Shown here piece by piece: positions 1 to 38,957 of a stretch of 64,000 nt of DNA. The notes beneath the pieces were generated by a model that worked only from the letters and a program-made list of their open reading frames with translations, searched no databases and was not told the DNA's origin. This DNA is from Bacteroidales bacterium (GTDB lineage Bacteria; Bacteroidota; Bacteroidia; Bacteroidales; F082): contig JAKSMU010000010.1 in NCBI GenBank assembly GCA_024400455.1, positions 9,209-73,208 on the forward strand. The letters are read 5' to 3'. Each line of letters begins with the position of its first letter. Position 1 is the stretch's first letter. The translations under genes and the position numbers were made by a program.

Positions 1-349
1 CGTCATCAGGACGATACAAGACCTTGAACTGACCGAAGCTCCTGTTTTGGAAGGCTTTCAGCAAGCGGCACACTACCGCTGGAGGCGTATTGGTTGACGT
101 CGCGTTTTGCGAGCCTCCCGTCGTGGTTATCCATTGGTCGCCGGCAACGGGTTTCATACCTTCCAGTTCGTAGTAGAACAACGACTTGCAGATAAGGTGT
201 TCCGGGTCGTCCATGTGCAGCGTCATCGAGTCGAGACTGAAATCGATAGCAATATTGTAATTCGCTGTGGCAAAGACCGGAAAACTGTCATTCTGGCCAT
301 AAACACGAGCCACAAGCACCATCATTATTATTACCAAAGTTTTTTTCAT
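1..349 (-). CDS. Secreted protein of unknown function, N-terminal part only (runs off the window start)
   Basis: Not in the ORF track because it has no stop inside the window. The reverse complement from ATG at 349 reads MKKTLVIIMMVLVARVYGQNDSFPVFATANYNIAIDFSLD... It stays open to position 1, has a signal-peptide-like N-terminus, and starts 27 nt after the stop of the 432-aa gene on the same strand. Confidence 0.5.
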   Translation of the reverse strand, partial: MKKTLVIIMMVLVARVYGQNDSFPVFATANYNIAIDFSLDSMTLHMDDPEHLICKSLFYYELEGMKPVAGDQWITTTGGSQNATSTNTPPAVVCRLLKAFQNRSFGQFKVLYRPDD

Positions 350-376: not shown

Positions 377-1675
377 TTAATCCAATACATTCCATTGCCA
401 ATGGGCATGCCCGACAAGATAGTTCGCCTCGACATCTAATTTCAAATAGAGGTCAGGCTCTTTGGATTCCCAGCTGTTGTTCGTTGCATAATAGAGAAAG
501 TCCCAGTGGACACCGCCTATACCCTTCACGCCAACTGTGACGAGTCCTTCCAAAGGATCAAGTGAAGCGCCGACATAGAGGCCAAGATCCAAAGACATAG
601 GCGCGAAAACATCATAGTCGCAATTCACTCCGTTCACATTGGAGGTAATATTGGCATCGACCAAGGTCATATCAAGAGCGCCCTGGATGCCGAAATCAAA
701 ATGCAATGGAGGGAAATTTGGACACGGGAAGTGTGCGCCAAGCGTAAATTCCGAACCGAGATGGACGTTGGCATTGAAGAAGAAAACCGGCAAGCCGTTG
801 CAGCAGTCTTTCTTCGTTCCAATATTCGCTGTGAAATACGGATTGATATTGAATTCTACCTTCGCTTTCTTCAGCAGGCTGCTTTTCTGAATCTTATCGG
901 TAACAGATTTGCATCGGTCAGCAATTTTTCCTGCATTCTCGATGGCATCCATCGCTTTCAAGATATTTCTATCGATTTTTGCACCAGCAATATCCAACTG
1001 CCACGAATTTTCGATGACCGTAATGGTGGCATAGTTATCACGAAGCCTTTGGCCACGGAATGTGAAATAGACTTTCTCGTGGCTTTCACCGCCCATTCCT
1101 GCCGAGGCGATGCGGCTGTCTTCGTCGATATCCACATCACTTTCATACCCAGGAGGATCTGTCTTAAAGATAAAGCTATCCTTTTCAACTACCTGGCCAT
1201 CTGCCCAGCATTCCACTCCCGGTTTCAAAGAATAATAAATACGAATACGATTCGTCAGATGGACAGACAGAATCTCACACTGATTTCCATAAGACGACGA
1301 CCTAACCACTGCAATATAAATGTACAAATTTGCCATGGCGTATTGGTCTTCTGGCATGCCTAAAACTTCAATAGAAATATGAGGGCTCGCCTTTGAACGG
1401 TCATCAAACGTGACTTTACACTCTACGACATTAAAATTAGTTGTCGAATAGGCCTGCAACCACCAATCATACTGAGCTTCGCTGTTACCATTGACATCAC
1501 CATCCACATCAAACTCAGCACGGAAGGTAGTGCCACTGGTAAAGCTGTCGAAGTATGACCTTGCAGTTCCAGAAAATCCGTTATACTTCAATTTCTGGGC
1601 AAAAACCGTAGAGCAACTTGCTACCAATAGCAAAATTGCCAACCCAAAGAACCGTTTAAACATATTATTATTCAT
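377..1675 (-). CDS. Lipoprotein or secreted protein of unknown function (432 aa), immediately downstream of the giant gene
   Basis: ATG at 1675. The N-terminus MNNNMFKRFFGLAILLLVASCSTVFAQ has a lipobox-like LVAS-C. The protein is Cys-rich with a beta-strand-like C-terminal half. Only 14 nt separate it from the giant gene stop. I recognise no family motif. Confidence 0.75.
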   Translation of the reverse strand: MNNNMFKRFFGLAILLLVASCSTVFAQKLKYNGFSGTARSYFDSFTSGTTFRAEFDVDGDVNGNSEAQYDWWLQAYSTTNFNVVECKVTFDDRSKASPHISIEVLGMPEDQYAMANLYIYIAVVRSSSYGNQCEILSVHLTNRIRIYYSLKPGVECWADGQVVEKDSFIFKTDPPGYESDVDIDEDSRIASAGMGGESHEKVYFTFRGQRLRDNYATITVIENSWQLDIAGAKIDRNILKAMDAIENAGKIADRCKSVTDKIQKSSLLKKAKVEFNINPYFTANIGTKKDCCNGLPVFFFNANVHLGSEFTLGAHFPCPNFPPLHFDFGIQGALDMTLVDANITSNVNGVNCDYDVFAPMSLDLGLYVGASLDPLEGLVTVGVKGIGGVHWDFLYYATNNSWESKEPDLYLKLDVEANYLVGHAHWQWNVLD

Positions 1676-1689: not shown

Positions 1690-4600
1690 TTAATGTAACA
1701 TCAAATTCTTAATATACTCGTGTGCGTCGATTTCATCGTTGACATCGATGCTGAACAGCATCTCTGCGTTGGTGTAGCAGTAGATGGTGATGGTGTGGCG
1801 CACACCCGGACGCAACACGCCGTCAGGCTCATCCTCGAACTGGGTCGGAATCTCCAGTTCGGTGCGGTGGATGTTGAGTTCACCACGGCGCAAGCCGATC
1901 CACGATTCGCCCAAGCTGCGCAGCACGATGCGCGGATTGACGATATCGGTGTTACCGATGTTGCCATATTCGAGCGTCAGGCAGCAGTAGCGGTTGGCGC
2001 GCAAGCCGACCGGAATGATGAGGTTGGTCGACAGGTTCTCAGGCTCGCCTTCCACGACAGTGAAGCCGTTGTGGAGGTAAGCGGCGCCAGCGCAGTAATT
2101 GATGGCACGCACCGTATAAGTGCCCAATGCAGCGCCCTTCAGGTCGAAGGTGACAAACACCTCGTTGAAGTTGACATACTGCAAGGCCTCGGCCTGGATG
2201 GTATCGGTAGCGTTGTAGAGAATCACTTCCATGTCGTGACGGAACTTCGAGCCGATGAGCTTCACGGTCACCTTGCCGGTGTTACCGCCACGGTTCGGGC
2301 TGATGCTGCGAATCTCGAACGGCAGGATGTCGGCCTCGATGGTCATCTGCTGGTTTGGATGTGCAGGACTGTAGCCGAACACGCTCACGCCATAATAGCC
2401 TGGTTCGGTGCGCGGAATGTAAAGCTCGCTGTTCGAGGTCATCTGACCATCGGTGGAGATGTCGTAGTCGAGGTTAGTACCGACACCGTCGTGCAACACA
2501 TAGATGTTGTTGACGGCACCCACCAGCGAATCGGTCGAGGTGACATACACGCGGACGGTCTCGCTGATGTTGCTGCCCACCACAAGTTTGTAGTCCTTGT
2601 ATTGGAAGTTATCCATAGTGAACGGCACCTGCTCATTGAACGGCAATATAGGCAGTTCAACTCTCACTCTACCGAGCGAAGCCGTGCGGTTGTTGTTTTC
2701 TTCGATTTCGTAGAAAGTATTGCGGGCATCGGTATAAACGATGATGTAATACTCGCCTTCCTGTACGCCCGAGATGTTGGCTTCGAGCTGGTGCTGTTCG
2801 CTCACGTTCTCCATCAGAGAGAGGTCGTAGGCAATATTGCCCAGCAAGCGGTCGTCGGCATCAAAGATGGTGTCGGTGGAGAGATAGACCACATCGGAGC
2901 AACCCACACCGGTAAGGGTGTTAGGACCGAGGTTCTTCACCTTCCATGTAATCGTCATGCTGTTGCCAGCCGTGATTTGCGACGGGAAGTCGATGTCGGT
3001 GACGATGAGGTCGCCAGGAGCGTTCAGGTCGACCACCACAGGCAACATGCCAAGGTTGTTGTCGCAATTCATTTCATAGAGTGCCTCGCTGTGGTTGGCG
3101 TTGACATAGAAGGCATAGTTGCCCGTCTCAGGCACCGGAACGATGAAGGTAGCAGTGTCGTAATAATATTCACCCGGATTGAGGACATCCTCACGCGTTT
3201 CAGTGGCAATCACCTGACCATGGTCGTAGGTATTGCGCGAAAGGACGACGCGGTCGGCGTAAGTACCGTAGGTAGGTCCGTCGCCCACATTGGTGACCTT
3301 ATAGCGCACCTCGATTGGCTGGCCGCAGGCTGGGAATTCAGTTAGGAGTTCCAAGTCGCTGACTTCAAGGTCAGGCACCGGAATGCTCGTAATGTTGATA
3401 GCCAATGCCTTCACATTGTTTTCAGCATTCGAATCAGGATTAGCGGCGGCATAGTCGGTGACGACCAAGAGGTACTGGTCACCGAGATAACCGTAAGGTA
3501 TCGTGACGTTGAAGCCATCATTGTACTGGCCTCCACCCGACACGACATCGTTTTTGGTCTTCTTGGCGAGCATCAGGTCGTTGGCATCCAAAGTGGCATC
3601 ATCAGAGAGATAGATTCTATCCTCATAGTTGCTCACTGTGGGCCGTGAACCGAAGTTATGGACCGTATAGGAATACGACACAGTTTCAGACCACTCAACA
3701 TCGGTTGCTCCGGTGAACGAAGTCACGGCAAGGTCGAGGCTGTATTCCTGGACCGGGAACGACACGCTCTGATACGTATTGTTGTATTCGCCGACATACT
3801 CGAACAGGTTGTCGTTCACATCGCTGACGATGTAAATGTAGTAGTTGTCGGTGGCCAAGGTATTAGGCAGCATCACGGTACGGGTGGCGCTGTAGGTATC
3901 GCCGATGGCCAACGGGCCTTGCTTGCTGATGGAGGTGAGACGTTCGGCATTCTCGACACTAAACTGAGGATAGTTCGACACATAGATGGCATCGGTCCAA
4001 GTTTCGTCGGCTGCGATGGCACGAATGCCTTGGTTGGTAGCCGTATAGGAGATGTCCATCGACATGCCAGCCGTTCCACTGCCAGGCTGTGTGGCATCGG
4101 TGATAAGCAGGTCAGGATATGGCGAGAGGGTGACACTCAACAGGTCGGAAACGATGTAGTTGGTGTACACATTGTCGCCTTCGCAGATGCCGTCGCCATC
4201 GTTGACCACAATATAGATGTAGTATGGACCTTGCGCCTCAATAGGCAGCGTCACATTCTGCACGATGGTCTCGGTGCTGTCGGCAGCCAGTGCAATCGGA
4301 TAGGTGATGATGTCGAGCGGCTGAGCCGTGATGAAGTTGAGTTCAGGCGACAAGCCGAGATAAACACCCAGTTCAATATCACCGGTATAACCGATGCTAC
4401 CCTTGTTGGTGATATCATAAACCACATCGAACGAATCGCCAGAATTGAGCGTGGTAGGCGCCAGCAAGTCGTGGGCCATGAAGTCAGGATTCTTCAACAG
4501 ATAGTGTTCATCCAAGCGGTTGTTGTTGGTGAAGTCCTTATCGTTTTGCGGCGTGGCTTGCAGTTTCACCGAGTTCACCTCATAGAAGTTACATGGGATA

Positions 4601-7600
4601 TCGATAGCCAGACTGCCAACGAGGGAGTCACCCGGATTGAGGTTGATTCTGGTGAGAGATGCCCTACCCACCTGGGCGTTGTTGAAGTTGGCCGTAAGCG
4701 CAATGCGCTCGTCGACCATCTTGCCCGAACCGATGTTGCGCAGCACATAGCAGAGCGAGTCGCGGGTATCGTTGATCCAGAAATTCTCGACCGTAAGGTC
4801 AGGCTGCACTACATAGATGGAATCGACGGCGATGTTGTTGTCTTCGTGCTGATATTCGAAGATGGCATCGTTCTTGTCGGTCCACACATAGAAGTAATAC
4901 TTGCCTTCCTGAGTGGTATGAGGCGTGCGTGCCTTACCCGTAACCATATAGGAGTTGATGTAACGGTTGTGAGGAATCGTATCGCCATTCTTATAGAAAT
5001 AGTGCTGTTCATCATAGAAGTCAGCGATGAGACCCGGCACGGCAGCCACGGCTTCATAATATCTGACGCTATCGGCGTGCGAAGCATTTGCGCTCAGCGT
5101 GTCAGGCACGGTGAAATGACATTCGGCCCAACGCATGATCATCGTATCGATGGTCTGGAAGTCGGTTGGCAGATAAAGTATGGTATCGTTCGAAATGCTG
5201 CCGATGCTCGTGGCAAAGGACGTGTTCAATTCAGGTTGATCTGACAGATAGAAGAAATCAGACCACTGCTTGCCGCGCCATGGCGGGACGATACCGCACG
5301 AGTCGCTGATGCCGCCGCCTTGGTTCGGGTCATCCAAAGGCTTGGCCGCCACATAACCGATATTCTTCACCCTATACGAGATTGGGAACTGTTCGTAAGG
5401 CGAAATGGTATCCATGCCCAAAGTCAGGTTAGTGACTGTGAGATCAGGTGGTGGAGCCGGCAAAAGGATGGTGCTATGGACTGAAACCGGCGACATGTTG
5501 TTGCCTTCGAAGAGCGATTCATAGACCGTATTGGTAGCATCGATACGCACGAAGAAGTTGAAGGTATCGATGGCGCGTTCATCGGTGACAAACGACATGG
5601 TGCGGACAATAGTGTCACCAGCAGCCATCAGCGGAATGGTATCCATATAGGTAGCTACCTGAGTGGCTTGTGAAGAATAAACCGTGTCAGTCGTCATGTA
5701 GATAATATCGGTGACAGGCCTGTTCTCGAATCCTGCCCTACCTTGGTTGACAATCATCCAACTGACAGTGATGGTGTCGCCGGCCACGCCTTCGTATGGA
5801 GGAATGACATTGGTGCCAATCAAGTCAGGATAAGGCGGAATATCGACTTCAATCTTCTTGTAGAAGAAGTTATCGCACTCCACGATTTCGCGGAACGACT
5901 CAGCAGCGCAAGTACCCGTCATGTAACCTTCAGGATCGCCTGGGTCGTGCGGGATATACGGAGGCAGATATGGATCAGGGAATACGCCGCCATACGACGA
6001 GTAGTCAAGGTGCATGTCGCTGTAAGGCACCCAGTTGGACAGTACGAAGAGGAACACCGTTCCGTACATGTCGTCAGGCACAAAGATATTGGTCGAATTG
6101 GTGTAAGACTCGCCCGGATTCAAGGCCGTTAGGTTAGGCACCGTGGCCATGAGGAACGACTCTGGGTTCTCTTGCGTGAAGCTTTGGTGCGTCCAGTTGT
6201 GAGGATACGAGAGCACGATATAATCGTTCCAAGTACCTTCAGCACCCGTCGGTGTAGGACCAACGCCGTCGTTCTTCACCGTCCATTCCACAGTCATCAC
6301 TTGACCGGTTTGGGCGTATGAGCAATCCAATGCCGAGACATGGAGGTCAGGCAAAGCCGTAGTAAAGGTCATGGTGTCGCTCTGGATTACGGCGCAGTCT
6401 TGGTGGGCAACGACATACCAAGCGTAGTAAGCCACGCCTGTGGTGTCGTACTGGTGCAGATACAACGGAGGTTCAGGGTCACAACCCCAACCGAAGCAGT
6501 GTTCGTAAGCACCATAGCCTTGGTAGACGGAAGCGCCCAAATCGACGGTAGCATAGTTGTTGCGGATGCCGTATCTGACCGGGAAGTCAGGGATTTCGAG
6601 GCCATTGCCGTAGTCGGTGCGCCACAGGTAAAGGTCGTAGTAATCGGCGCCTTCGATGTAGTCCCAACTGAAGAGCACCTCCTCGTTCGACTGAAGGGCC
6701 TGTTCGCGCACTGGCAGCAGGCCTTCTTCATCCAGGTAGTTGTTCCAAACGATGCTTTCAGGGTCGCAAGCGGTATTGAAATAAACCGGCAAAGTGTAGC
6801 CGCTCATCTCCGTACTGCTGCACATCGAACGCACCTTAACGAAATATTCAAGGTTTGGCTCCAGGCCGTCAAGCACGATGAAGTTGGTATCAGCAACCAA
6901 GATATGAGGCGTGATTTCATCGACTTGCATGTAATAGACCATCCATTCCGATTCTTCGTCGGCAGGCGTCCAATACACATTGGCAGTCGTGAAGGTGATT
7001 TCATTGTCAGGAACAATCAATCCCGTCGGCACATGGCAGTTGACTGGGGTCATTTCGTAGGCACCCATATCGATGATGGCATCCTGGATACGCTCGTTGT
7101 CAGCCAAGTCGAAGTCGCCAGGAGCAGCCGTGGCGTTGTTACCCACATTGATACACATTGACGATTCCTGCAAGCTGAAGTCGCCATTGTCAGGATCGGC
7201 GAAACGCACATAGTTGAAGCTTGGGTTGGTACCGTCGTTGTCGGACTGCAACACGATGTTGCCCGTACCAGCCGGGAAGGTCTCGTCGCTTTCGAAAGCG
7301 GTGTATGAAATGGTTCCCGAAGCAGGAATGATGCCTCTCACATTGCTCACCAAAGCACCGGTGCGGTTGCCCCAAACGATGTTGTTCGACCAATAGTCGT
7401 AAAGGGTTTCACCGAAGACACCGCTCATGCGGCCCAGATACATACCGCCGCCATTGTTTGCACTTCCGTTATAGATATCAGCCGTGTTCTTCACTACGGT
7501 GCTGTTCTTCATCCTCGGAGCGCCATACAAGCCACCACCCTTTTCAGCATGGTTGTAACTGATTTCGGTATTGTAGATTTCAGGCGAACCATTGATACCG

Positions 7601-10600
7601 CCACCGCTCTTGTCGGCGGTGTTGTTCTTGATCAAGCACCAATTGATGACATCGCTGCTGGCCTTGATGGCACCGCCATCGCCATTGGAATAGTTGTTCA
7701 TGAAAGTGCTGTGATAGATATGGCAGTTCGAGCTGTTCAAGGCACCGCCGCCATGACCGGTAGGATAATCGCCTTCCCAAACCATGGTATTATTCAGGAA
7801 CTGGCAATAGTCGATGTCGCAGTTCTTGAGGTAAGCAGCACCACCCTCACGGTTGCTTCGGCCGTTTTGGAAGGTAATGCCATTCAGTATGTCGCGGTTA
7901 TTGGATGTCGTATAGTCGCGGCGCATAATCTGCTGCAAGTTCTGACCGTCGAGACGGGTGATGTTGAGGTCGAAGTCGCGCAGCGAGAGGTCGTAGCTGG
8001 CAGGTTCGTTACCGGCAAAGCCACCATACAGGCTGATGTTGTCAGGCAAGTTGAAGGCCGGATATTGAGGAACGCCGCTGCCCGTGTAGATACCGGCAGC
8101 CATCCAAATCTGCGGACGAGGCGACATCAGCGTGGCGCGCTCCATGGCAAATTGCAGATAAGGAGTTGCATCTTCCCATGAAGAGCCGTTCTTCAAACCC
8201 GCGCCGAACTGAGTGACATAGATGATGTTGTTGGCATCAGGTTCAATCTCATAGTCGAAATCGTATGGCGATTCGTAAGCACCCATATCCGCCTTTTCGC
8301 GTTGGACACGGTTGTTATGGCCGAGGTCGTATGTTCCAGAGACATAACTCAGTTTTCCGTGATTGACGAGGACAGAACCATCTTCGAGCGACCAATCGTC
8401 GTCATCGCTGACATAACCGTTTCCGGCACCAGCCGCGATGGAAGGATTGACGAACATCGGATAGTTGATGTTGATGTCGCTGTTTCCACTGTTGTTGACA
8501 TTCAGGGTAATGTTGCCTTCACCAGCAAAACCGCCTTCGATGGCGCTGTAGAGCACGTCACCATTGCCGAAGGTATTCTGATTGTAGGAAGGATCGCTCG
8601 TACGCAACTGGCATGGCAGATTGTTGCCTATCTTGTTGCCCCAAAGCACACTGTTATAAACCTTGTTATAGATATACAAGCCGCCACCATCAACAGAAGC
8701 ATAGTTGTTGACAATGGTCGAATTGTAATGTGTACCACCCGTACCGGCACCGCCATTACCACTTGCACTATTGTTGGCCAGCAAGCAGTTATGGAAGATA
8801 ATGTGAGTACCATTATAGCCACCACCATTATAGCCACCACCATTATAACCAGAACCGGTATTTGAAGCGGTGGTCTTACAGTTACGGATAATCGTGTTGT
8901 CAACGATGAGGTCATAGTTATTGAAGAACAAACCACCGGCAACGCCGTCTCTGGCTTCACCGTTTTCGATGATGCATCGGTTCAAGTTACCCTTTTGCAT
9001 CATGACCACACCACCATTGTTCTTATAAACGAAACCGTTCTTGAGCGTCAGACCGTCATAAATGGCGCTGTGCAGTTCTTCGATTTGCTTGTATTTGAAG
9101 TAAGTGCTGTGAGCCTGTTGCAAGGTACGCTGGATGTTCTGACCATCGAGGATGGTTGCGTTAGCTTCGAGGTCACGGTCATCAAGGTCGTAATCGTAGG
9201 CTTCGTTACCGGCGAAACCGCCATAGAGGTCGATGCCGTTCAGGGCTACGAAAGCATCAACATACGGCCAGCCGTTACCTGTATAGGTACCGCCAGCAAT
9301 CCAAATCTTCGGACGGTTGTCGTTATCGCCTGCGAAGTTGATGGCCAGCTGCAGGTCAGGAATAGCGTTGGTCCACGAGTCACCGCTGTAGTCACCGCTA
9401 TTGTTATGGGCATCAACATAGATGATGTTGTGTTCGTCAGGACGCACTGCAAAATCGTGAGTATAGTTGCTTTCGTAAGCACCGATATCGATTCTGCTGT
9501 TCTTCACACGGGTCTCGTCGTCGAGGTCCTTGGTGATGGTGTAGGTCAGGCGTTCACCGTGGTTGGCGAGGATGGAGTTGTCTTGGAAACGCCAATCGCC
9601 GCCGCCATAGTTGGCACCCACATTTTCCGATGGGTTGACGAACTTAGGCGAGAAGAGATCATTGGTGTTGTTGCCAGCAGTCAGCTTGATGTTACCGATA
9701 CCGGCAGCGCCGCCTTGGACAGCGCAGTAACGCAGGTAAATCGGGACATTGGAAGCGCTCACCGCAATCTGCTGTGTATTGAGGTCAGTCTTGTTGCCCC
9801 ACAACACGCAGTTGATGAATTCGTTATTCGAACTGCTGTTTTCGCTATACACGCCACCAGCCAGGTCGTAAGAGTAGTTGTTCACCATAGTGCAGTTCAG
9901 CAGCTGCGAAGCCACTTGCGAGTTGGCGATGTACATACCGCCGCCCTTGGCGCCCGTGGTAAGGACGCTGTTGTTGGCAATCAGACAGTTGTTGATGGTT
10001 GCGTTGTTGCCATAGATACCGCCACCGAGTTTGCTGCCGCTTTCGACATTGTCGCAGAGGTTACGGTAGATTTCGCAATAGGTCAAGGTTGAAGACTTCA
10101 CCCAGGCGCCGCCACCATCGTGCAAGGCCGTGTTGCTGAAGATGTCGCAGTCGCTCACTTCGCAACGGTTATCGACATAGATACCGGCACCACTGCCGCC
10201 TTGGTTGTTCTTCACGACGAGGTTGTTCAATGTGATGTAGTTCTTGGCATACACGCCGCCACCTTCCTTGGTGGTGTAACCGTTCTGGATGGTGAAGCCG
10301 TCAACGGTGGCGCGTTTCATTGGGCCGAAGCTCGATTCGTTGCCATAGTTGCCGAGGACACGCTGGCAATGGCTGCCGTCGAGGATGGAAGCATGGTTCA
10401 CGAAGTCGCGGCTATCGAAATCGACATTTTCCAATTCGTTGCCTTCGAAGCCACCGAGAATCTCGATGTTAGGTTTCAGCGTGAAGGCCTGGACCGATGT
10501 GCCGTTGCCTTGATAAAGGCCTTGTGCCACCCAAATCTGCTTGGTACCTACGGTATCGCAGGCCGAGGCTTGGCTGATAGCCCAGTTGAGGTCGCCCGTA

Positions 10601-13600
10601 GCATTCTCCCACGACGAGCCGTTCTGCAAGCCGGCACCGCCTTGTTTCACATACCAGATGCAACGGATTTCAAGTTCGAGGCTGACCAAGCTGTCGCAGT
10701 CAGAGCCAGCCGGAGTCCACTGGTGTTCGTATTTGCCCGATTCGGTAAGGATACGGCCATAGAAGTTGTACTGTCGGTTGGCAATCACATATTTATGTTC
10801 ATAGTTGAGGCAACTCTCTTCGTAAGCGCCCATATCCACGATGTCGTCCTTCACACGAGGCTTGAAGGCGAGGTCTTCGTCGCCAAACACATTCTCGTTG
10901 TCGCCTTGGTTGACGAAAGCGGAGTTTTCGGTTGGACGGTAAATCTCCTCTTCGTCGTCGAGGAAGAAAGGATAATTCAATTCAGGGTTATCGCCCGTAT
11001 TGTCAATTTCAAGGTTGATGATGTTCGAACCGGTGTTTTCGGCAGGAGCACCGCCTTGGATAGCGCAATAGTCGTAGGTGTTGTTGCGGCCTTCGGTCTG
11101 GAAGGCGTAATTACGGCTGTCGTTGCCCCACATCACGCAGTTCACCAAATGGTTGTATTGGTGGCCTGAATTGATGGTATCGAAAGCATAAAGGTCTGTC
11201 GTATTCTTGATGATAGAAGTGCCAATGATAGCTGCTCTCACCGTATGCAAAGCACCGAGACGGTCAGCATTGTTGCCACTGATTTCGCAGTTGGCGATCG
11301 TATCGATTGGACTTTCGCCGCCACCAAAAATACCGCTGCTACGGGTCATAAAGATAGCACCGCCTTCATCAATAGCGTAGTTATGACGCAACTTGCTGTT
11401 GGTGATATAGGTCGGGGCATTATTCTCAGAAACTTGACCACGATAAATACCGCCGCCCTTGAATGCCACATTGTCGTAGATTTCACAATGCGAGAGGTTA
11501 CCACCCTTACGCAGCAGCACACCGCCACCGTTCATATAATCCTTGAAGAAACCTTCCACTGCGCTTTCGCTCAGATACTTGATGTTTCTCACATAGCCTT
11601 CGCGTGCATAACCGCTCTTGATGTGGAAGCCGTCCCAAGTCACCACCTCGTCGCCAGTGAAGTCGCCAAACTGTTCGAGAACACGCTTCACTGAGTTACC
11701 CGTCAAGACGGAGAGGTTGTTGTTGAGATCGCGCTGGCTAAGGTCGTAGTTGGCAGGTTCATCACCATTCAAACCGCCATACACATTCACACCAGGCATC
11801 ATGGCGAGGTTGCTCCAGAATTGTGCGTTATCATCGCCATAAGTACCCTTTTTCACCCAAATCTGAGGTCTTGGATTGTAACAGAGTGCAAAGTTCAAAG
11901 ACATTTGGAAGTGTGAAGTAGCGTTATCCCATGAAGAACCATCGTTGTTTCCACAAGGTGCGCTGCTAACATAAATGATATTGTTGGCATCAGGCTGGAT
12001 GAGTGTGCGGCCCGTGAAGTCCGACTCGTAGGCACCGATGTCGATACGGCCTTGCAGTACGCGGGATTGGCCGTTCATGTCGTATTCAGGAACATCGACA
12101 CCCGAAACCGTACCATTGTTGACGCATGGCGAATTGCCATTCGGTCTGTAGGAGCCATCAAGGTTAGCCTTGAGGTCGGTGTTGTTGAGACCAATGTTGC
12201 CTTCGCCAGGATAACCGCCTTCGATGGCCGAATAGGTGATGTCGGAAGTCTCGATGCTGACCTTGGCAAAGGCACCATCCTCACATTCCACCCAGTCATA
12301 ATAATGGTTGGAGAGTTGGTTGGCCTTGCCCGAAGCCTTGTTGCCCGATAAAATAGTGTTCACAATCTTGTAACCCGTACCATACAAGGCACCGCCGTCG
12401 TCCTTTGCCGTATTGTTGACGAAGGTCGAGCAGGTAATGTCGATTTCGTGTTCGTTGCCGAAGATGGCACCGCCACGGGTGTCCTCACCTGACATTGCGC
12501 TGTTGTTGGCAAAGAGGCAGCTCGTGATGCGGCCTTCACCGTGTCCCTTACAAGTCTTTTCGTAATGGATGCCACCCTTATTGTTAGTGACTTTGGTATT
12601 GGTCATGTCGAGGTAGTCCAACGAATACTTTTCAGTACCCCAGAATGGGTCGGTGAATTTATGTGCAGCAGCCTTCAAGCGGATGGCACGGCCTCCATTA
12701 CCAATGAGCTGGCAGTCTTCGACACGAGTGTAGGTCACCACATAGATGCCGAAGCCGTTGTTGCCCGAAATCTTACAGTTGGTAAAGACGCAGTGGTCGG
12801 AAACAACCACATAGCCGCCTTGGTTGTTGGTCAGTTCGCAGTTGATGAAGTTGTTGTAGATGATGCGCCGGTCGCACGACTCGAAGTCATCGTTGTACAT
12901 ATAGATGGCCTCTACCCCACTGTTGGTATAGTTTTCCGTAATCTTACAGTTGCGGATGGTAGCGTAGCGTTTCAACGAAAGTGCCGTACCGTTGCTGACG
13001 CTGGCTCTCGAGAAACCGTTCTTAATCGTGAAGCCATCGATGATCAACGGGTTGTCGGCTGTGCAATCTTCCACTTGGTAGATGACACGCTGGATATAGT
13101 CACCGTCGAGTATGGTTTCATGGTTTGCAATGTCACGCTGGCTGAGGTCGTAATCAGCCAATTCGGTACCGGTCAAGCCGCCATACATCTGGGTGTTCGG
13201 GAACAAGCGGAAGGCGTTGACTGAAGTTCCATCGCCACGATACAAGCCTTCGGCCACCCAAATCTGATTGAGGTCGCTTGGATGGGTTCCTGCATATTCG
13301 GTAGCATCCTTGAGGCTGCCGAAAGCGTTCTCCCATGAAGTACCGTTGCGCAAGCCGCCGCCTTCTTCTGTAACATAAATGATGTGCTTGAAACTGAGAT
13401 TGAGCACCACCACACTATCGCAGGTTTCGTTGATAGCCCAACGGTGGACATATTGTCCCGACTCGGTGAGCCATTCGCCGTAGAACGGATAATGCGTGTT
13501 CATGGTTACATCGTTGTATTCGCGATAAAGGACACACTTGTATTCGTAAGCACCGATTTCAACGGTTTCGTCCATGATACGGTCGTTGCCGATAAAGTCC

Positions 13601-16600
13601 TTTTCAACGGCAACCACGCTGTTATCACCGGCATCGATGAGGGCTGAGTTTTCAGTCAAGGTGTAATCGCCATTGACAGGAGCCAAGAAGCAAGGATATT
13701 CGTAGGCCTGAGAAGTGCCTGTGTTATCGGCAGCCAAAGCCACCACTTCGTCTTCATAACCTTCAAGGCCATGCTCAACGGCGCAGTTGTTGAAACTGCA
13801 GTTCTCTGCCAAGCGTGAGGCTTCGAAGTGGGCGCAGAGGTCGCTGTAGTTGCGGTTGCCCCAAACAACTGTGTTGTGGAACACACCGCCACTGATTGGA
13901 TAAACGTTACTGCCTCTGTTGTTCGATTTGTTGTTATTGATGTTGCAGTTGATGAACTGGTCGTTGTTGCCAAGGCTGTGACCAACGATAGCCAAAGCAT
14001 TGTTATGGTCAATCTGGCAATCGTGGAAGGTGTTGGCATATTGCGAACCGTTTTTACGCTTGTTGAGTGCTACGGCATTGTTGAATGCCAGACGGCAATG
14101 GCGCATCACGGTAAAGTCGGCATAGAGTTGCGCCTCGCTGAGGTTGTCTTCCTCTGGCAGTTCCACGCGGACCTGGTTATAAGTGAAGTTCGTATGGTTC
14201 ACCGAGCCGCCATAGAGGGCAATCTTACCGATGTTATGGTTGAAGTCGCAAGCCTCCATCGTAGCGTTGACAGCATACAGGTAACTGTTCACCATAGAGG
14301 TATTCGTGCTGACATATTCGGTGGTGTCGTAAGCGATGACGACATGGTCGAGGGTGCCGCCAAACACGCTCAGCGTCGTGCCCTTCATCGCATTGCTGAT
14401 GCCGCTGTTGTGTTCTGGGTCACGGACGATGCGGTTGTTCTCGAAACTGATGTTTCTCAAGGTGGTGTTGGCCAAGATGGCTGCACCAGCACCGTTGAGG
14501 TGGTTCAGGTTGTACGACATGTCGTTGCTCACAGGATGAACGAGAATGGCACCGTTATAGTCGTAGAAGCTGCCTTCGTTCATATAGCCGTTGCGGATGA
14601 CGAAACCATCCCAAACGGCGGCATCCTCTTCGGCAAATGGTTCGTTCTGATAAAGGACGCGCTGAGATGCCATACCATCAAGGAAGGTTGGATGGGCTGC
14701 AGGATCGCGTTGGTCGAGCGAAGTCTCGTTGCCGGCAAAGCCGCCATAGACTTCAACACCAGCCACCACATTGAAGGCGCTGTGATTGCCATTGCCGTCA
14801 CCCGTATAAGACCCTTCCTTCACCCAGACCTGGGCGGCAGGCGTTGTGGTGTTGGCATGTGCAACAGCATATTGCAGATCCGAAGTGGCATTGGCCCATG
14901 ACGAGCCATCGCCTTCGCCGTCTTGTGCCACATAAATCACGCCATCGGTTGGTGTCACGCTGATGTGCGAGGCTTCCGTTGAAGCAATGGCGCCGAGGTC
15001 GTTGCCTTCAGTGCCTTGCTTGTGGCAGATGGAATTGAGGCCTAAGCTCCAATCCACATCGTCGATGCTGATGAGATGACCGACATTTGGAGTCGGATTG
15101 ACAAAATCAGGAACGAAATTGCCTGAGTTCCCAAGCACGATATTGCCCACGCCATTGTACATGGCGTTTTCGATGGCGCAATAATTGATTTCGGATGCCA
15201 AATCCTTGGCGATGAAATCATGAGTATAGATGGCTTGTTCGTTACCCCAGACAATGGAGTTCTGCATGACTGAGTTACGCAACGAAATCAAGGCATGCTT
15301 CGGCTGACGCAAGTGGTTGACATCGTCGTCTTCCATGTTAAGGAAGAGATCGGCATTCACCGTGTAGGTGTAATCGGTGCGGTTGTTCACGAAATCGCAA
15401 TGGTCGATGAGCACATTGTTGATTGCGTTCAGTACGGCACCATAGTTCTTGCCTTCACCGCCGCCGCTATAGTTTCGCGTGCAGGTATTGTTATAGAACA
15501 AGGTGTAACGGACAGTAGCGTCTTCAGCTCTTACGAGGGCATAGTTGCAACTGTTGTTGTGGACCAGGCAAGAATCGAGGATTGCGCCTTCGTTAAGTCG
15601 TACCAGAATCTTGCTGCCGTTGTCGCTGAAGCCAGAGAAATCGCAACGCAACAGACGGCCGTTAGCAATGGTAGGAGTATTTGAAGTGCAGTTTTCCAAA
15701 GTCAGATAGACATCCACAGTCATTTGCTTTCCGCCTTCGAAAGTGATGCCTTCCCAAAGAGTCCTCGAATCTTCAGTGCAAGGATAACTTGACGATTTCG
15801 CCAAGAGCGCACGGTTCGTGCTACCGCTCAAGATGGTCGGATGGGCTTCCGGATCGCGTTCGCTGATGTAGGTTTCATTGCCAGCAAATCCGCCATGGAC
15901 CTCAACGCCGCCAACATAGTAGAAGTCGGCCGTGCCTGAAGTAGCGCCGTGATAAGTACCTCCGGCCACCCAGACTTGCTTTCTGCTGTAACCGCTTTGT
16001 TGCGAGATGTTATTTAATAAGGTGTTCAGATTGTCGGAAGCATTGGCCCATGACGAACCGTCCTTGGTGCCCGCACCCGTTGTGGTGACATACCAAATTG
16101 AAGAATTCATCGTCACATGGGCAACGACCAAACTATCGCAATCGGCAGCATAAGACCATTGGTGTGTGTATGTTCCTGGTTCGGTAATGTATGAGCCGTA
16201 GAAATTGTAAAGAACGCCATACTCTAGATTCAAGTCCTTGATTTCGAGTTGCGTGCAGTATTGTTCGTAAGCGCCAGGCTCGATGGTGCCGTCCATGATA
16301 CGGTCGCGGCCAGCCAAATCCTTTTCAGGCAGACCCGTAACCGAATTGTTGCCCATGCCAACCACGCTCGATTCGTTCTGCAACTGATAGATGCCAGCTT
16401 CAGGAGCCAGGAAACGGACATAGTACTTTGTCACGTCATCGCCATCATTGTCGGCTTCAAGATTGATATTGCCTGTGCCTCCACCCGTATAGCCCTGGAT
16501 AGCGCAATAGGTGAATGTGCCACCCGAATTGTAATACTGGTTCGGCGTTTCGCCCTTCTTGTTACCCCAAATGATGAGGTTGGCCAAGGTGTAACCTGAG

Positions 16601-19600
16601 CCACTGCTATAATTATACAAGCCACCGTAATTATTGGTTGCCGTATTGTTGGCAATCGTAGTATTTATGGCATCAGAATAATAGAGATAGACACCGCCTG
16701 CTTGAGAAGCTCTGTTGCCTGTCAACTCGCAGTTGATGAGTTTAGAATAATTGAGATAGGCACCACCACCATAATTGCCATTCGATATATTGTCCTTAAT
16801 CTTACAATTCGTCAAAGTGAGATATTGGCCACAAACACCAGCGCCGGAACCCGAAGTAGTATTATTGGTGATTTCGCAATTAGTCAAGGTGTTATGAATG
16901 CCGGAAGCACCCGCGACATAAATGCCAGCGCCTTCATAGTAGCCATTAACCACATTATTTGTCACGACACAATTTCTCAAATGCGAATAGCTGCGCATAT
17001 AAACACCTGCGCCATAGCCCTGACAATAACCGTTACGGATGGTGAAGCCGTCCCATGTGGCAGAAGTGCTGCTGGTGAAATTACTATTCTGGCAAAGCAC
17101 ACGGCGAGCTTCATCACCATCGAGGATGGTCATGTTCGTAATGAAATCACGATCATTCAGATTGAAGTCGGCCGATTCGGTTCCAGCAAAGCCGCCATAA
17201 ACGTTCACGCCCGGAACCATAGTGAATGCATCCTGCGACTGTGAGCCGTAATAGGTGCCCTTGGCCACCCAAACTGTTGCCACAGGATTCATAGTAGCGG
17301 CAAAATTGACAGCCATTTGCAAGTCGCCAGTGGCATCGGTCCACGAAGAGCCATTACCCATACCTTCAAGTTTCACATAAATGATATTGTTGGCATCGGC
17401 AACGATATCGAAAGCCGACTCGTAAGGCGATTCGTAAGGACCCATATCGGCAGTACCTTGCTGCACACGGGCATTGCCTGCCAAATCCTTTTCAGGCATG
17501 TTTTCAAAAGCACCACCTTTATTGATCAAGATGGAACTGCTCGTCAAATTCCAATCGCCATCTTCAGGAGCGACGAAACATGGGCTTGCGAAATTGCCAA
17601 GATTTTCTGATGCGAGGGCGACATTGCCGACACCACTATAGCCACCTTCAACAGCACTGTAGCTGACATCGACATGTTCACTTGCATAAATCGAAGAAAC
17701 GCTTTCGCCCTTCACATTGCCCCAAACCACCGAGTTACGCACAACATTTTCGGAAGTATAATTAAAGTAGATGCCGCCACCATTATTATTGGCTGCATTG
17801 TCATAAATGCCGCAATGAATCAATTTCGTATTTGAGCCGACATAAACGCCGCCGCCATAATAGCGGGCCGTATTACCGGCAATCAAGCAGTTGGTCAACG
17901 TTGCGTAATAGTTCGAATAAACGCCACCGCCATGGTAGCCTTCATTATCGATGATCTTACAGTTGGTCAGCTTGGCATCGCCATCTGAAGAGCCATAAAG
18001 ATAAACGCCACCACCGTAATTGTTTCCAGAACTAACGTTGCCACTGATAATGCAATTCCGCAATTCGGCATTTGCTCTGAGATAAGCGCCAGCGCCATAT
18101 AAACTTCCAGCGCCATTGGTGAGAGTAAAGCCGTCCCACAGAGCAGCATTTTGAGCAGTATAATCCGTACGCTGATAAAGAACACGTTGCACATTTTGAC
18201 CATCAAGTATGGAAGCATGGTTCACAAAGTCACGCTGCGAGAGGTCGTAGTTGTAGGCTTCATCACCAACGAAGCTACCATAAACCGCAATGCCCGAAGG
18301 AATGGTGAAAGCATTGCCATTTTCAACGCCATTGCCCTGATAGGTGCCTTGCGCCACCCACACCGTTGCCTTTTGGGCGAAAGTGCCGGCACGATTGGCT
18401 GCCAACTGCAGATAAGGCGTTGCATTAGCCCACGAGGAGCCATCCTGGGCGCCAGCACCATTTGGGGTGACATAAAGGATGTTATGTTCGTCGGGAGACA
18501 AAATCACAGCATTGTAAGGCGACTCAAAAGCACCGACATCAATGGCACCTTGCTGCACACGGACATTGCCAGCCAAATCGGTTTCAGGCAGCGTCAGGCC
18601 CGAAGTCGTGCCTTGGTTGATGCACGCCGAAGCCATGGTCAGACTCCAATCGCCACCAGTAAATTCAGCGCCAACACCTTCCGAGGGGTTCGCGAAACAT
18701 GGGTTAAGGCCGCCGCCTTCGTTTTCATCGTCCAAAGCGATGTTACCCGTTCCGTCATAACCGCCTTGAATAGCGCAGAAAGTAGCCGTTGGCGTTCCCG
18801 AAATATAGTACTGGTCGAACGCCTCGCCTTTCCTATTGCCCCAAACAATGGAGTTGGTCAGATAAGTATAATAAGCACTCACATAAATGCCAGCGCCGGA
18901 ATTTGAGTTCGTTCCCGTAACAAGGTTGTTCACGACATTGGAACTGATCAGTTTGGAATAATTGCCGACATAGGCACCGCCAGCACAATTCGAAGCCGTA
19001 TTGTTGGCCACATTACAGCCTACCAATTCAGAATTGTAATAGGCATAAGCGCCACCGCCCTGATATGCATTGTTGTTCTCAAAGCGGCAGTTCACGAATC
19101 TATGAGGCGAACTGCTGGAATAACCGTATGAATAAAAGCCACCGCCATAACCATTCGTATAGTTACCGGTCACAACGCATCGCTCCATCACAGTCTGATA
19201 GTTGGACGGGCAATAAACACCACCGCCGTATGAATAGGAATACGATCTGCTCTCGGCACCATTATCATGGATGAAACAATCCAACATATTGCCACCCTTG
19301 GCATAGACACCGCCACCGTATGTGTAATAGGAACTCGAGCCTATATGACCGATATAGTTGCCATAAATCTCGCAGTTTTCAAGACGACCTTTTTGCATAA
19401 ACACGCCGGCACCGTATGATGCGGCTTGTGCCAAAATCGTGTCATTTCTGATGATGCAGTTCTTCAAGGCACCGTTGTCCATCAGATAGGCACCTGCACC
19501 ATAGCTGTCGGCGGTCAGATGGCCGTTTTCAATCGTGAAGCCGTTCCAGACCGATGACTTATCATTGGCAAACGAAACAGCTTGCATCAATACGCGCTGG

Positions 19601-22600
19601 ACATTTTGACCGTCAAGAATAGTGACATGCTGGCCATATTGGCGTTGCTGCCAGTTTTCGGTATAAGCTTCCGTTCCTTCAAAGCCGCCATACACATTCA
19701 CGCCTGGCTGCATGATGAAAGCGGAGCCATTCACAGCGCCATCACCAAAGTAACGGCCTTCCTTGACCCAAATCATCGGAATTGGGCTCATGCCCGAAGC
19801 CTCGGAAACAGCATAATTAAGGTTATCGCAAGCATTATCCCACGACGAACCGTCTTTCTGGCCTGCGCCCTCAACCGTGACATAAATGATATTGTGACCA
19901 TCAGGCTGGAGACCGGAACCCTGTGTATATTCCGATTCGTAGCAACCTAAATCAATGATTCCTTGCTGTACACGACTGTTGCCGGCCAAATCAACATCCG
20001 GCAAAGTAACCGACAGATTTTGGGTTGTACCCTTGTTGACCAAGGCAGAACCCGACTGAACCGTCCAATCGCCATCGCTGTAGGCAGCACCCGCACCTTC
20101 GGTAGGCGAGGTGAAATACGGCGAAGTGAAATCACCCGTATTGGCAGCACCCAGCACGACATTGCCCGTGCCACTCCAGCCACCTTGGATAGCCGAATAA
20201 GTAATGGCCGGCAGATAACCACTAGCACAAGTCACATTGCTAATAGCGCCAGAACATTCATTGCCCCAAACCACGCAGTTCTTCAAACTGACATCGCTAC
20301 TTGATACATATAATCCACCGCCAAAGCTGCTGGCATTGGTGACTAAATTATTTACGATATCGCAGTTAGTAAGATAACTGACACTGTTGAAATAGACGCC
20401 GCCACCCGCATGCTTTGAAGTGTTGTTGCTGACAAGGCAGTTGGTCATGTAAGTGTATGAACTTGCAAACACGCCACCACCGCGCTTGCTTGAAGAATTT
20501 GTTCCCGAACCAGCAATATTGTTGCTGATGGTGCAATTGGTCAGCTTGGTATAACACGAAGCATAGACACCGCCGCCATCGTAATCAATGGATTCGTTTC
20601 CAACGATTTCGCAATACGTAATCATGGCCGGATTGCTTTGCGAAGCTCCATAAGCATACACGCCGCCGCCATATTCTTTTGCTGTATTGTTCCGAACCGT
20701 ACTGTTCGATATCGATGAATAATAAAGATACACACCGCCGCCACAGCCATAATACGAATCAACATTATTGTTATCATGGATGTCGCAATATTGGGCTGAA
20801 GCATTATCCAGATAGGCACCTGCGCCATTGCAGGTTACATACCAGGTTCCCGAGCCGCCCCATGTAATGTCATTTTCATAAATCTCGCAATGGCTCAAAC
20901 TTCCTTTTGTGACATACACGCCAGCACCATACGAAGTGCCATTGTTACTTGATATGCCAACAATGTTGTTGTTACGGATAACGCAATTCTGCAATGTGAC
21001 TTTGTTACGGATATAAGCACCCGCACCATAACCTTGATTCAGGCGTCCCCTTTCGATGACCAAACCATCTACGTATGTCACTTGACTGAAATCGCCTTCT
21101 TGATAAAGGACACGTTGGACATCCTGACCATCCAAAACAGTGAGGTTATCGGTCAGATTACGTTGAGAAAGATCATAGTTCCAAGCTTCATTGCCGACGA
21201 AACCGCCATACACACTGACACCATCCTGCAAGATGAAGGCATTACTTCCGCTTACGCCATTGCCGGCATAGGTACCGGCAGCCATCCACACTACTGGACG
21301 TGGCGAAATTCTGCATGCCACCATGAGTGCCGAATTCAAGTCGTTGGTTGCGTTAGCCCATGAGGAGCCGTTGCCCGTTCCCGTTGTCGTGACATAGATG
21401 ATGTTGTGCTCATCAGGAGCAATATTGAACTGTGAGCCGAAAGATGATTCGTAGGCACCCATATCAATGCCATTCTGCTGAACACGGTCGTTGCCTGCCA
21501 AATCGCTTGCCGGTATCGTGACATTCTGAACCGGGTAGATGCCAAAGTCAAGCATTGGCGAATCGGCAGTGAGCGTCCAGTCGCCACCCGAATAGTCAAT
21601 TCCAGCGCCTTCCGTCGGAGAAGCGAAACACGGACTCGTTCCTGTCCCGACATTGCTGGCCGACAGATTGATATTGCCTAAACCAGTAAAGCCTCCTTCA
21701 ATGGCGCTGTACGACACCATAACATTAGATGTATTATAGATATTACTCGGTGTGGTTCCATACCTATTTCCCCAAACAATGCTGTTGGTAACATAGCAAT
21801 TGCTGTTAGTAGGATACACTCCCACGCCATAACTGTTGGCTGCTTTATTGTTAACAATCGTGCTATTGGTAATATAGGTATTGTATCCAGAATAGATAGC
21901 ACTATATGATCTTGAATAGTTGTTGTTCACCAAACAGTTGGTAATATACAGATAGCCATCCGCATCTATTGCAGAACCATATTGTGCTTGGTTGCCCTCG
22001 AAAATGCAATTCGTAACATTCGTATAATAGCTAGTGTTATTTTTGAAGATACCGCCACCATAGTATGAATCATTCCCCTTAAAGACGCAGCCCGTGACTT
22101 CCACCGCGTTGATGGCAAACAAGCCACCACCGTATGAGTAGCCGTTGGTATAGGAAGCTGATTTGTTATCGTGGATATTGCAATTACGTATGGTGCCATA
22201 ATTTGCATATATGCCACCACCTCTGGAATAGGAATAATAGCCCGAGGTGTTGAGCCAAGCATAGTTGCCATACACTTCGCAGCCATCCAAAGTTCCGTAA
22301 TTCATAAAAACGCCAGCACCGTACGTATTACCCGAGTAAACAATCGTATCATGGCGGATAACGCAATTCCTCAAGGTGCCATTCTTACGAATATAGGCAC
22401 CTGCACCATATTCGCTTGAGTTCAAGCGGCCTTTCTCAAGAGTAAAGCCATCCCAAACGGTTGCCATATCTTCAGAATAAGCTTCGCTCTGATAGAGCAC
22501 ACGCTGCACATTCTGACCGTCGAGGATGGTAGCGTTGTTTTCGAAATCACGTTGAGACAGGTCGTAGTTGTAAGCCTCGTTTCCGGCAAAGCCGCCATAC

Positions 22601-29709: not shown

Positions 29710-29762
29710 AGTATAATACTTTTCACAAATGCAATTACTAACTGCACACAATTTTGAAGATG

Positions 29763-29901: not shown

Positions 29902-30561
29902 TCAAGCCGTGATGATGCCATGCGTAAAGGCATAGTTAACCAACTCGCCGATGCTTTCAAAGCCCATCTTGCCATAAATATGATTTTTATGGCCTTCAAC
30001 CGTACGAACGCTAAGCTGAAGTCTTTCAGCAATTTCCTTAGCACTGAAACCTTGGGCGCAAAAACGAAGTATCTCAATTTCACGGGCTGTCAATATCTCG
30101 TTCAGATCCTCGCCTTCTGCCGTCGCCACTTCCTCCATCATGGCATTGATACCCTTGCCATAGTATCCGAAACCCGAAACAACCGCATGTATGGCCTCAA
30201 GCAATTCGTCGGACTGCACTTCCTTACTCACAAAGCCATTGATTCCCATCTCAATCAAGGCGGTGATATGATGCGGATTCAAATCGACCGACAGAACCAG
30301 GATTTTCGTCGCCGGACAATTGATGCCGACGTAACGCACCACTTCCTTTCCATTGCCATCGGGCAGTTGCAAATCAAGAAGAATAAGGTCGATGTCTTTC
30401 CGCGACTCCAAAGTCTCAATAGCTTCCTTCAAAGTGCCCGCTTCTGCCACCACCTCAAGATGTTCATCATCCTGTTTCAACGTCATCGCTATCCCCCTCC
30501 GATACAGAGGATGATCATCAACCAATAACAACCTGACCTTATCAAACTTGTTTTCTTCCAT
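29902..30561 (-). CDS. Response regulator, NarL/LuxR family (REC domain plus LuxR-type HTH)
   Basis: VRLLLVDDHPLYRRG, the phospho-acceptor context DLILLDLQLPDGNG, and the C-terminal LTAREIEILRFCAQGFSAKEIAERLQLSVRTVEGHKNHIYGKMG. Confidence 0.9.
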   Translation of the reverse strand: MEENKFDKVRLLLVDDHPLYRRGIAMTLKQDDEHLEVVAEAGTLKEAIETLESRKDIDLILLDLQLPDGNGKEVVRYVGINCPATKILVLSVDLNPHHITALIEMGINGFVSKEVQSDELLEAIHAVVSGFGYYGKGINAMMEEVATAEGEDLNEILTAREIEILRFCAQGFSAKEIAERLQLSVRTVEGHKNHIYGKMGFESIGELVNYAFTHGIITA

Positions 30562-30620
30562 TTTACATTTATTTGATTATCAATAAAATTATCCAATTAT
30601 TCACCCATCACCATTCCCCA

Positions 30621-38849: not shown

Positions 38850-38886
38850 TACGATTCAATTTTTCTTTCGTTTTCAATAAAAAATA

Positions 38887-38902: not shown

Positions 38903-38957
38903 TAACACTTTTATAACAACCGAGGAGGTTGCAAGGTTGCAACCCAAAATTGAAAAG

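Follow-up and report, generated by a model that had tools for sequence, protein, structure and literature searches.

The window considered here, a stretch of 64,000 nucleotides from a Bacteroidales bacterium (GenBank assembly GCA_024400455.1, contig JAKSMU010000010.1, positions 9,209 to 73,208), encodes on its minus strand a giant protein of 9,339 aa (1,013 kDa, pI 4.4), the final 118 aa of which (1693-2046, minus strand) represent a real, distinct, uncatalogued and strongly conserved family of C-terminal domains, and not chance sequence. The domain, referred to below as the tail, is invariably linked to a downstream gene, g4, whose product ends, in Bacteroidota, with a type IX secretion system (T9SS) sorting domain, and in a few proteins the tail and the core of g4 are found in a single chain. 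The reading favored here, with a probability of roughly 0.5, is that the tail belongs to a split adhesin, in which it would form the junction or serve for docking, with the T9SS signal being carried by the g4 partner.

The single open reading frame (ORF) of the giant comprises 9,353 codons (1690..29751, minus strand), and the first ATG with a credible leader, at 29707-29709, is the likely start, which places the gene at 1690..29709 with a TAA stop at 1690-1692. The leader, MKMILRYLLTIALSLFAVESMFG (29638..29709, minus strand), combines a basic n-region with a hydrophobic core, behind which there is no cysteine, i.e., it is a predicted Sec leader of the signal peptidase I (SPase I) type without a lipobox (signal peptides were judged by eye throughout). 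An earlier note on this DNA had pointed to such a leader on a protein of about 1 MDa, and this was borne out; the C-terminus that it quoted, ...TITIYCYTNAEMLFSIDVNDEIDAHEYIKNLMLH followed by the stop, was likewise confirmed exactly. Behind the leader, Pfam finds fn3 at the N-terminus, many right-handed beta-helix regions and, toward the C-terminus, an array of CARDB domains, which a locally iterated CARDB profile resolves into eight repeats (aa 7788-9009; 2683..6348, minus strand). Beyond the last CARDB domain lie a PPC-like segment and an IPT/TIG-like domain, both weakly recognised, and after these the tail. The TIG-like domain (about aa 9130-9221; 2047..2322, minus strand) has a weak Pfam TIG match, directly precedes the tail, and is a beta-sandwich in the AlphaFold2 model with structural matches to the IPT/TIG domain of EBF3; Foldseek, applied to a 300-aa model of the three C-terminal domains, returned generic multi-Ig matches that were uninformative. 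An order of fn3, beta-helix, CARDB and TIG domains is typical of surface fibres.

The tail domain and the known sorting signals

The tail domain proper spans aa 9222-9324 (1738..2046, minus strand), and is followed by a C-terminal amphipathic helix extension, NDEIDAHEYIKNLM (1696..1737, minus strand), which belongs to the sub-clade of the window only. With the last 300 aa of the giant as a query, a word-indexed database gave nine homologues only, all of which are contig-end fragments that end at the same point as the window protein. An exhaustive search of 1.84 billion cluster representatives with a profile made from these nine tails revealed a family of 381 representatives at E ≤ 1e-3, with 113 at E ≤ 1e-10. 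Position, leaders and sources were followed in the best 150 of the 381, which are mostly 1,000-6,800 aa long, many of them with typical Bacteroidota Sec leaders. In 148 of these 150 the tail domain ends 0-19 aa from the C-terminus (≤8 aa in 140), the distance to the stop in the window giant being 17 aa, and there is exactly one tail domain per locus. The carriers come from Bacteroidales, Paludibacter, Lentimicrobiaceae and the cultured Haliscomenobacter hydrossis (WP_013763582.1), and one partial protein from a metagenome-assembled genome (MAG) labelled Cloacimonadota; in the source records they are named only “CARDB domain-containing” or “right-handed parallel beta-helix repeat-containing”.

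The AlphaFold2 model of the window tail, made with a 70-sequence alignment (predicted local distance difference test 90.8, predicted template-modelling score 0.78), is a complete seven-strand beta-sandwich followed by a 14-residue helix, while the wider family mostly does without the helix and stops 1-5 aa past the last strand. Nearly invariant positions are P12, R16, N29, G31, D34, S44 and L78-R79-P80-G81, and the conserved motifs are P..R..NR, LE(F/Y)GN.GN.DI, S..G and LRPG. When the giant was compared with orthologous giants from seven other species, the tail was the best or nearly the best conserved block of 100 aa in its last 3,400 aa, with an identity to the L003 orthologue of 96% in the tail and 66% overall, and corresponding pairs of 83 vs 64, 81 vs 62 and 79 vs 64 in other species. 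A search for the tail within the giant itself (blastp with word size 2, and phmmer --max) found the self-match alone, so the tail is no recognisable copy of an internal repeat. The 70-sequence profile found short unnamed fragments only in a search for homologous proteins, and a profile of the tail reached, among the Protein Data Bank (PDB) sequences, sub-threshold matches to the F-strand of FN3/monobody domains only. Foldseek with the tail model returned from the PDB generic Ig-like, macroglobulin and transglutaminase-barrel domains (best E 0.008, template-modelling score ≤0.54), with no T9SS sorting domain in the top 50.

T9SS cargo is currently predicted from a C-terminal domain (CTD) of type A or type B. 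Three neighbours of the giant had been said to carry textbook type-A CTDs, and this holds for two of them, the C10 peptidases of 758 aa (CTD at 44447..44650, minus strand) and 1,026 aa (46763..46966, minus strand), which score 35.5 and 45.9 bits with TIGR04183 against a curated cut-off of 23. The third, an InlB-repeat protein of 651 aa (32567..32767, minus strand), is marginal and just below both curated cut-offs (19.1 bits in NCBIfam; 26.6 vs 27 in Pfam, E=7e-6), though still found by the local type-A profile described below. These CTDs on the neighbours mean that the organism uses the T9SS, as the earlier note had held.

The tail of the giant is of another kind. The last 200 and 500 aa had zero NCBIfam matches at E ≤ 10, including TIGR04183, TIGR04131 and NF033708, and the last 150 aa had zero Pfam matches at the same threshold. 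With hmmscan, 0 of 70 diverse tails matched TIGR04183, TIGR04131, NF033708, PF18962 or PF13585 at E ≤ 1, and the recurrent weak matches among them were to Ig-like families only (UpsA, DUF11 repeat and CARDB); the NF033708 model itself was active, with weak matches on the 1,026-aa and 651-aa neighbours and none on the tail. A local type-A profile, built up by iteration from the C-terminal ends of every ORF in the fetched DNA until it had collected 38 CTDs, matched no tail even with --max and E ≤ 1000, and hhalign gave the tail a probability of 0.3% against type A. Type B was compared by the hidden Markov models (HMMs) of the libraries alone, TIGR04131 and PF13585. The claim that the giant lacks a type-A and a type-B CTD thus stands and can be extended to type C, and the profile search of its C-terminus against TIGR04183 and TIGR04131 that had been proposed with this claim brought no match at E ≤ 10; nor was a diverged type-A or type-B CTD recognised in the tail, with type B being covered by the library HMMs only.

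The earlier note had also seen a CARDB-type start of the tail. This resemblance is real, and it is weak: hhalign aligned the tail with CARDB at a probability of 16.6% (E 0.0015) over the first 32 columns alone, which is the “LTLEYGNIGNTDIV” resemblance that had been noticed. The first two strands of the tail, with an N-x-G motif, are CARDB-like, and eight true CARDB repeats lie upstream; in contrast to these, the window tail has no PF07705 match at E ≤ 10, weak PF07705 matches occur in only 2 of the 70 family members (E about 0.025), and the locally iterated CARDB profile never extends into the terminal 50 aa of any representative. Judged by these alignments, the tail is at best a very distant relative of CARDB.

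The g4 partner and the fused proteins

The genomic context of the tail was followed with a scan of one genome per GTDB species, for which patterns from the close nine-sequence alignment were used, and which thus covers Bacteroidales relatives only, the wider family being sampled by five loci and three fused proteins. The scan yielded 31 loci, all from uncultured Bacteroidales MAGs of horse, ruminant and other herbivore guts (including Candidatus Limimorpha), and an extra weak match in a MAG labelled Pseudomonadota (L034). In 31 of 31 Bacteroidales loci three genes lie downstream of the tail gene and share its strand, namely, in this order, g2 (393-520 aa, 0-94 nt past the tail gene), g3 (427-489 aa, with thrombospondin type-3 repeats) and g4 (950 to >2,400 aa). 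One MAG (UBA1176) has two paralogous loci (L030 and L032), each of which keeps its own partner.

The g4 proteins share a core of about 290 aa (residues ~50-345 of a 607-aa Haliscomenobacter protein), which consists of a DPN-x-x-GP-x-GY motif, DUF7619 and an FN3-like domain. With the 607-aa protein as a query, the core was found downstream of the tail in 41 of 41 fetched loci, with E from 1e-49 to 1e-110, and these include the 31 Bacteroidales species, Haliscomenobacter hydrossis and other Bacteroidota MAGs; the linkage is obligatory in this sample. Complete g4 genes number 26 in the fetched sequences, and the type-A CTD profile matches 24 of them, the other two being interrupted by an N-run or a frameshift, and TIGR04183 and PF18962 confirm the CTD in L003, L028 and Haliscomenobacter. 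The mean pairwise identity is 0.53 for the tail and 0.57 for the g4 core. DUF7619 has been described as a CnaA-like domain with a predicted intramolecular isopeptide bond, typical of the stalks of fibrillar adhesins (PMC12617251).

In the wider family, five distant loci were compared for their gene order. In Haliscomenobacter (L035) the tail gene is followed by an inserted RHS gene and then by the 607-aa DUF7619 and Por_Secre_tail protein; in L037 the order is tail gene, a protein of 943 aa, one of 649 aa and an 850-aa SprB/DUF7619/Por_Secre_tail protein; in L039 the g4 gene, for a 1,662-aa SprB/DUF7619/Por_Secre_tail protein, begins 2 nt past the stop of the tail gene. L040 has the order tail gene, g2, g3, g4, as does L041, where the gene bearing the g4 core is cut by the contig end. 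The neighbour lists of the examined tail loci contained no member of the PorP_SprF family.

Two side observations were made at these loci. The inserted gene of L035 (18512-22579 of CP002691.1) encodes a 1,355-aa RHS/YD-repeat protein with an Rhs-associated core, and sits where Bacteroidales have g2 and g3. In L037 (1-9955), L039 (1-9944) and L040 (1307-9994) a second giant lies directly upstream of the tail gene, 2,900 to >5,200 aa long, with Ig_7 and HYDIN-like Ig/ASH domains and its own type-A CTD, and these loci therefore encode multi-fibre clusters.

The tail was found at an internal position in only two of the best 150 of the 381 representatives, P0038 and P0159, and these two are also the only ones of the 150 with a g4 core in the same chain. 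P0038 is a Bacteroidales-type protein of 6,120 aa in which the tail (4957-5073) is joined by a link of about 25 residues to a g4 part that has lost its signal peptide and has a canonical type-A CTD at the very end. The chain as a whole is laid out like any type-A T9SS cargo, starting with the fibre and ending with the anchor, and its gene stands alone among housekeeping genes with no g2 or g3 nearby. P0159 (two contigs; L043 1824-9605) is a non-Bacteroidota-type RTX/Calx-beta/lipase/cadherin/DUF4114 protein, whose tail-like domain occupies 1216-1323 and whose g4 core occupies 1873-2256. To these two can be added the 4,531-aa ORF of L034, in which a weaker tail-like domain (3003-3096) and the g4 core (3825-4108) occur together with four CarboxypepD_reg domains. 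The three proteins show that the order of tail and then g4 core is kept whether fused or split, inside and outside Bacteroidota, and from the presence of the tail-like domain and the DUF7619 core in one chain of P0159 it follows that the pair predates its association with the T9SS. The three internal tails speak against a signal dependent on a free C-terminus, and in favour of a role in a junction or in docking.

Proposed docking, sorting and rival explanations

The arrangement can be read as a two-part surface-fibre unit, in which a huge beta-helix and CARDB fibre would end in the tail, and the g4 “base” protein would contribute the DUF7619 and FN3-like core and, in Bacteroidota, the type-A T9SS CTD at its end. 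The chain would be split directly after the tail here and in most Bacteroidota relatives and remain a single polypeptide in a few lineages, and small secreted accessories, g2 and g3 with its thrombospondin type-3 repeats, would usually lie between the two parts. After export by Sec, the tail would dock non-covalently on the g4 base, possibly with the help of g2 and g3; the CTD of g4 would be recognised by the T9SS, g4 would cross the outer membrane and become attached to the surface, and the CTD-less giant would be exported along with g4 or retained by it at the surface. For the split form, the usual one in Bacteroidota, this is the most economical interpretation, and it would account for the conservation of the tail, its invariable linkage to g4 and its tolerance of an internal position. 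A functional coupling of the tail to the g4 base is quite likely. The specific mechanism, docking or hitchhiking, has a chance that is even at most: the family, its terminal position and conservation, the linkage to g4, the CTD of g4 and the fused forms were observed, and the docking and the export or anchoring in trans are inferred. The most far-reaching form of the proposal, in which the T9SS exports or anchors a 1-MDa protein without a sorting domain of its own through a tail docked to a CTD-bearing cargo, after the splitting of a single-chain adhesin, is tentative and falls clearly short of even odds.

The earlier note had described a paradox, i.e., a giant with a Sec leader and no recognisable sorting signal in an organism that uses the T9SS, and suggested that the tail might be an undescribed sorting or anchoring signal. 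What remains of this suggestion is an undescribed, conserved C-terminal module tied to the downstream genes, and the part that probably does not is the stand-alone signal, in view of the internal tails of P0038, P0159 and L034. The solution of the paradox is probably a CTD that the partner provides in trans, as proposed above, without a new stand-alone signal.

Several points weigh against the docking reading. The strict terminal position of the tail (148 of 150) is equally expected of a true sorting signal. P0038 is a singleton cluster from one contig. The correlation of distance matrices, tried as a way to choose the binding partner, did not discriminate (fibre body 0.84, g4 core 0.79, g3 0.79 and g2 0.50), and since the value for tail and g4 core is no higher than that for tail and fibre body, there is no specific signal of co-evolution. 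In the genome of the window, g4 would lie beyond position 1, as deduced from the 31 related species, with g2 and the start of g3 being visible. The proteins g2 and g3 are without CTDs as well, so that the whole ensemble could be periplasmic, and in the literature no described precedent was found for T9SS co-export of a CTD-less or piggyback partner.

The main competitor on the side of sorting is that the tail represents a new, fourth class of T9SS signal, which the translocon would read directly, or else a dedicated shuttle (g2 being a possibility), with g4 being merely co-expressed cargo. The extreme C-terminal position in 148 of the 150 representatives would suit such a signal, as would the high conservation, the occurrence mainly in Bacteroidota proteins with Sec leaders, and the CTD-like size and Ig-like sandwich fold of the model; moreover, a dedicated neighbour gene recalls the pairs of type-B CTDs and PorP-like proteins (PMC9143113). 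It is nevertheless unlikely, because the tail has no sequence relation to types A, B or C and no T9SS CTD appeared among its top 50 Foldseek matches in the PDB, because hundreds to >1,000 residues follow the internal tails of P0038, P0159 and L034, two of which (the RTX/DUF4114 protein and that of the Pseudomonadota-labelled MAG) are of a non-Bacteroidota type in which a T9SS signal would be senseless, and because the sole candidate reader, g2, is hypervariable and absent from some loci (see below). A related idea, that a type-A or type-B CTD has diverged so strongly in the tail that current models miss it, would agree with the equal length class, the terminal position and the beta-sandwich fold, and yet it is very improbable given the failure of all library HMMs (window tail at E ≤ 10, the 70 members at E ≤ 1), of the local type-A profile (E ≤ 1000) and of hhalign (0.3%); on these comparisons type A is essentially excluded and type B unlikely.

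Another explanation is that the tail is a structural end-cap only, and that the giant stays in the periplasm, is released by lysis or vesicles, or takes another route, the linkage to g4 reflecting shared function or regulation. The tail has no recognisable export signal (NCBIfam, Pfam), g2 and g3 are likewise without CTDs, and a generic Ig-like fold with first strands that are weakly CARDB-like is what a cap might look like. The peak of conservation in the giant is not what one would expect of a cap, though, and its fixed place upstream of the g4 core, fused and split and across phyla, would be left unexplained; in addition, the CTD on the fused P0038 puts a homologous fibre outside the cell, and the domain architecture of the giant is that of surface fibres. 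This explanation is unlikely.

In its logic, the proposed tail and g4 pair comes closest to the type-B CTD cargo with an adjacent PorP/SprF-like partner, such as SprB-SprF of Flavobacterium johnsoniae, where the adjacent partner is needed for export or anchoring (PMC9143113, PMC12618676). Both cases have a very large Bacteroidota surface fibre with a specialised C-terminal domain and a cognate partner gene alongside, and the paralogous loci L030 and L032, each with its own partner, add to the likeness. Unlike type-B CTDs, the tail has no TIGR04131 or PF13585 match and also occurs internally, and the partner g4 is no PorP/SprF beta-barrel but a soluble multi-domain cargo with a type-A CTD. Like the type-A CTD (TIGR04183/PF18962), the tail is, as modelled, a beta-sandwich in the size range of ~70-100 aa that sits at the very end of Bacteroidota proteins exported by Sec; it differs in having no detectable homology (hhalign 0.3%) and in its motifs, N.GN.D and LRPG as opposed to PNP, GxY and K-x-hydrophobic.

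Two further systems resemble the proposed mechanism. In hitchhiking by the twin-arginine translocation (Tat) system, as for PaoABC of E. coli (PMC4273604), a folded, signal-less protein crosses a membrane bound to a signal-bearing partner, as is proposed here, and the T9SS, like Tat, moves folded cargo; the machine and the membrane are different, and no T9SS counterpart was found in the literature. Dockerin and cohesin also employ a small C-terminal module on a large secreted protein that binds to a separate surface-anchored partner, as the tail might do, and weak N-terminal Cohesin matches were seen on several members of the wider family. Unlike a dockerin, which is an EF-hand pair, the tail is an Ig-like sandwich without any relation in sequence or fold, and no report of a dockerin-cohesin-style attachment for the T9SS was found in the literature. 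A different pairing, in which the tail and DUF7619 would complement each other as a split isopeptide domain, was dropped, as the tail models as a complete domain and has no invariant lysine, and DUF7619 of g4 appears complete by reading (PMC12617251).

What appears to be new here is the terminal domain family together with a split architecture on a presumably T9SS-dependent surface adhesin. The CTD-based rule for cargo would overlook a family that counts hundreds of very large Bacteroidota proteins and is abundant in Bacteroidales of the herbivore gut. Should the tail indeed couple such fibres to a partner with a CTD, the T9SS secretome would be larger than CTD counts suggest, the T9SS would handle hetero-complexes, and tail and g4 could be put to use in surface display as a natural docking pair. 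The tail is a clean new domain for Pfam and NCBIfam, with a genomic signature of tail gene, optional g2 and g3, and DUF7619-CTD gene.

Accessory genes and the remainder of the window

The g2 gene of the window (377..1675, minus strand) begins 14 nt past the stop of the giant and encodes a 432-aa protein, in which an SPase I leader is followed by a PKD-like domain at the N-terminus, another Ig-like domain, a helical linker and, at the C-terminus, a Cys-rich domain. It has no NCBIfam or Pfam match except a weak one to DUF6583, and its profile matched in the PDB only through the PKD-like N-terminal domain (6nz0, E 1.4e-7); a PorP/SprF or PorV-like barrel, which had been considered for g2, was rejected on these grounds. 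The earlier note had taken the 432-aa protein for a lipoprotein. The window protein does have an LVAS-C sequence (Cys21), but this cysteine is absent from 28 aligned homologues, which keep an A-Q signal peptidase I site with an invariant Q27, so that g2 is, by this alignment, probably not a lipoprotein. The protein is hypervariable, with a mean pairwise identity of 0.24 vs 0.49-0.57 for g3 and the g4 core, and between the window and L003 it is 22% identical next to tails that are 96% identical; this suggests diversifying selection or cassette exchange, as expected of an exposed protein.

The g2 profile finds g2 in all 31 Bacteroidales loci, in the window and in the more distant L040 and L041, while it is missing from the tail loci L035, L039 and L042. 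The proposed co-occurrence of the tail with the 432-aa gene is thus seen among the close relatives and fails in part of the wider family, and the idea that the tail is read by this protein finds no support, g2 being both hypervariable and missing from some tail loci. Of g3, the N-terminal 116 aa are visible (1..349, minus strand) before the gene leaves the window at the edge; it is the orthologue of a conserved protein of 430-490 aa with thrombospondin type-3 Ca-binding repeats.

Within the ORF of the giant the base composition shifts near 16,000, from a GC content of 0.51-0.53 with positive GC skew at 2-16 kb to 0.47-0.49 with negative skew at 16-30 kb, possibly because the two halves differ in their repeats or domains or because the gene is a mosaic of the two. 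Plus-strand ORFs lie antisense to the giant (1720-3345, 3658-5244 and others of 180-541 aa between 1.7 and 29 kb), and almost certainly these arise from its biased use of codons and amino acids and are no genes. Directly upstream of the giant, and on the same strand (29902-32561, minus strand), are genes for a LuxR-type response regulator (219 aa) and a histidine kinase with tetratricopeptide repeats (TPR; 646 aa), which may regulate the fibre operon. Further along, the streptopain-like C10 cysteine peptidases of 758 and 1,026 aa stand in tandem (44435-49831, minus strand), and both combine an N-terminal Spi/I69 inhibitor pro-domain with their type-A T9SS CTD. Finally, an 817-aa ORF on the plus strand (37878-40331) overlaps the gene of a 921-aa P-type cation ATPase (36084-38849, minus strand) by about 1 kb.

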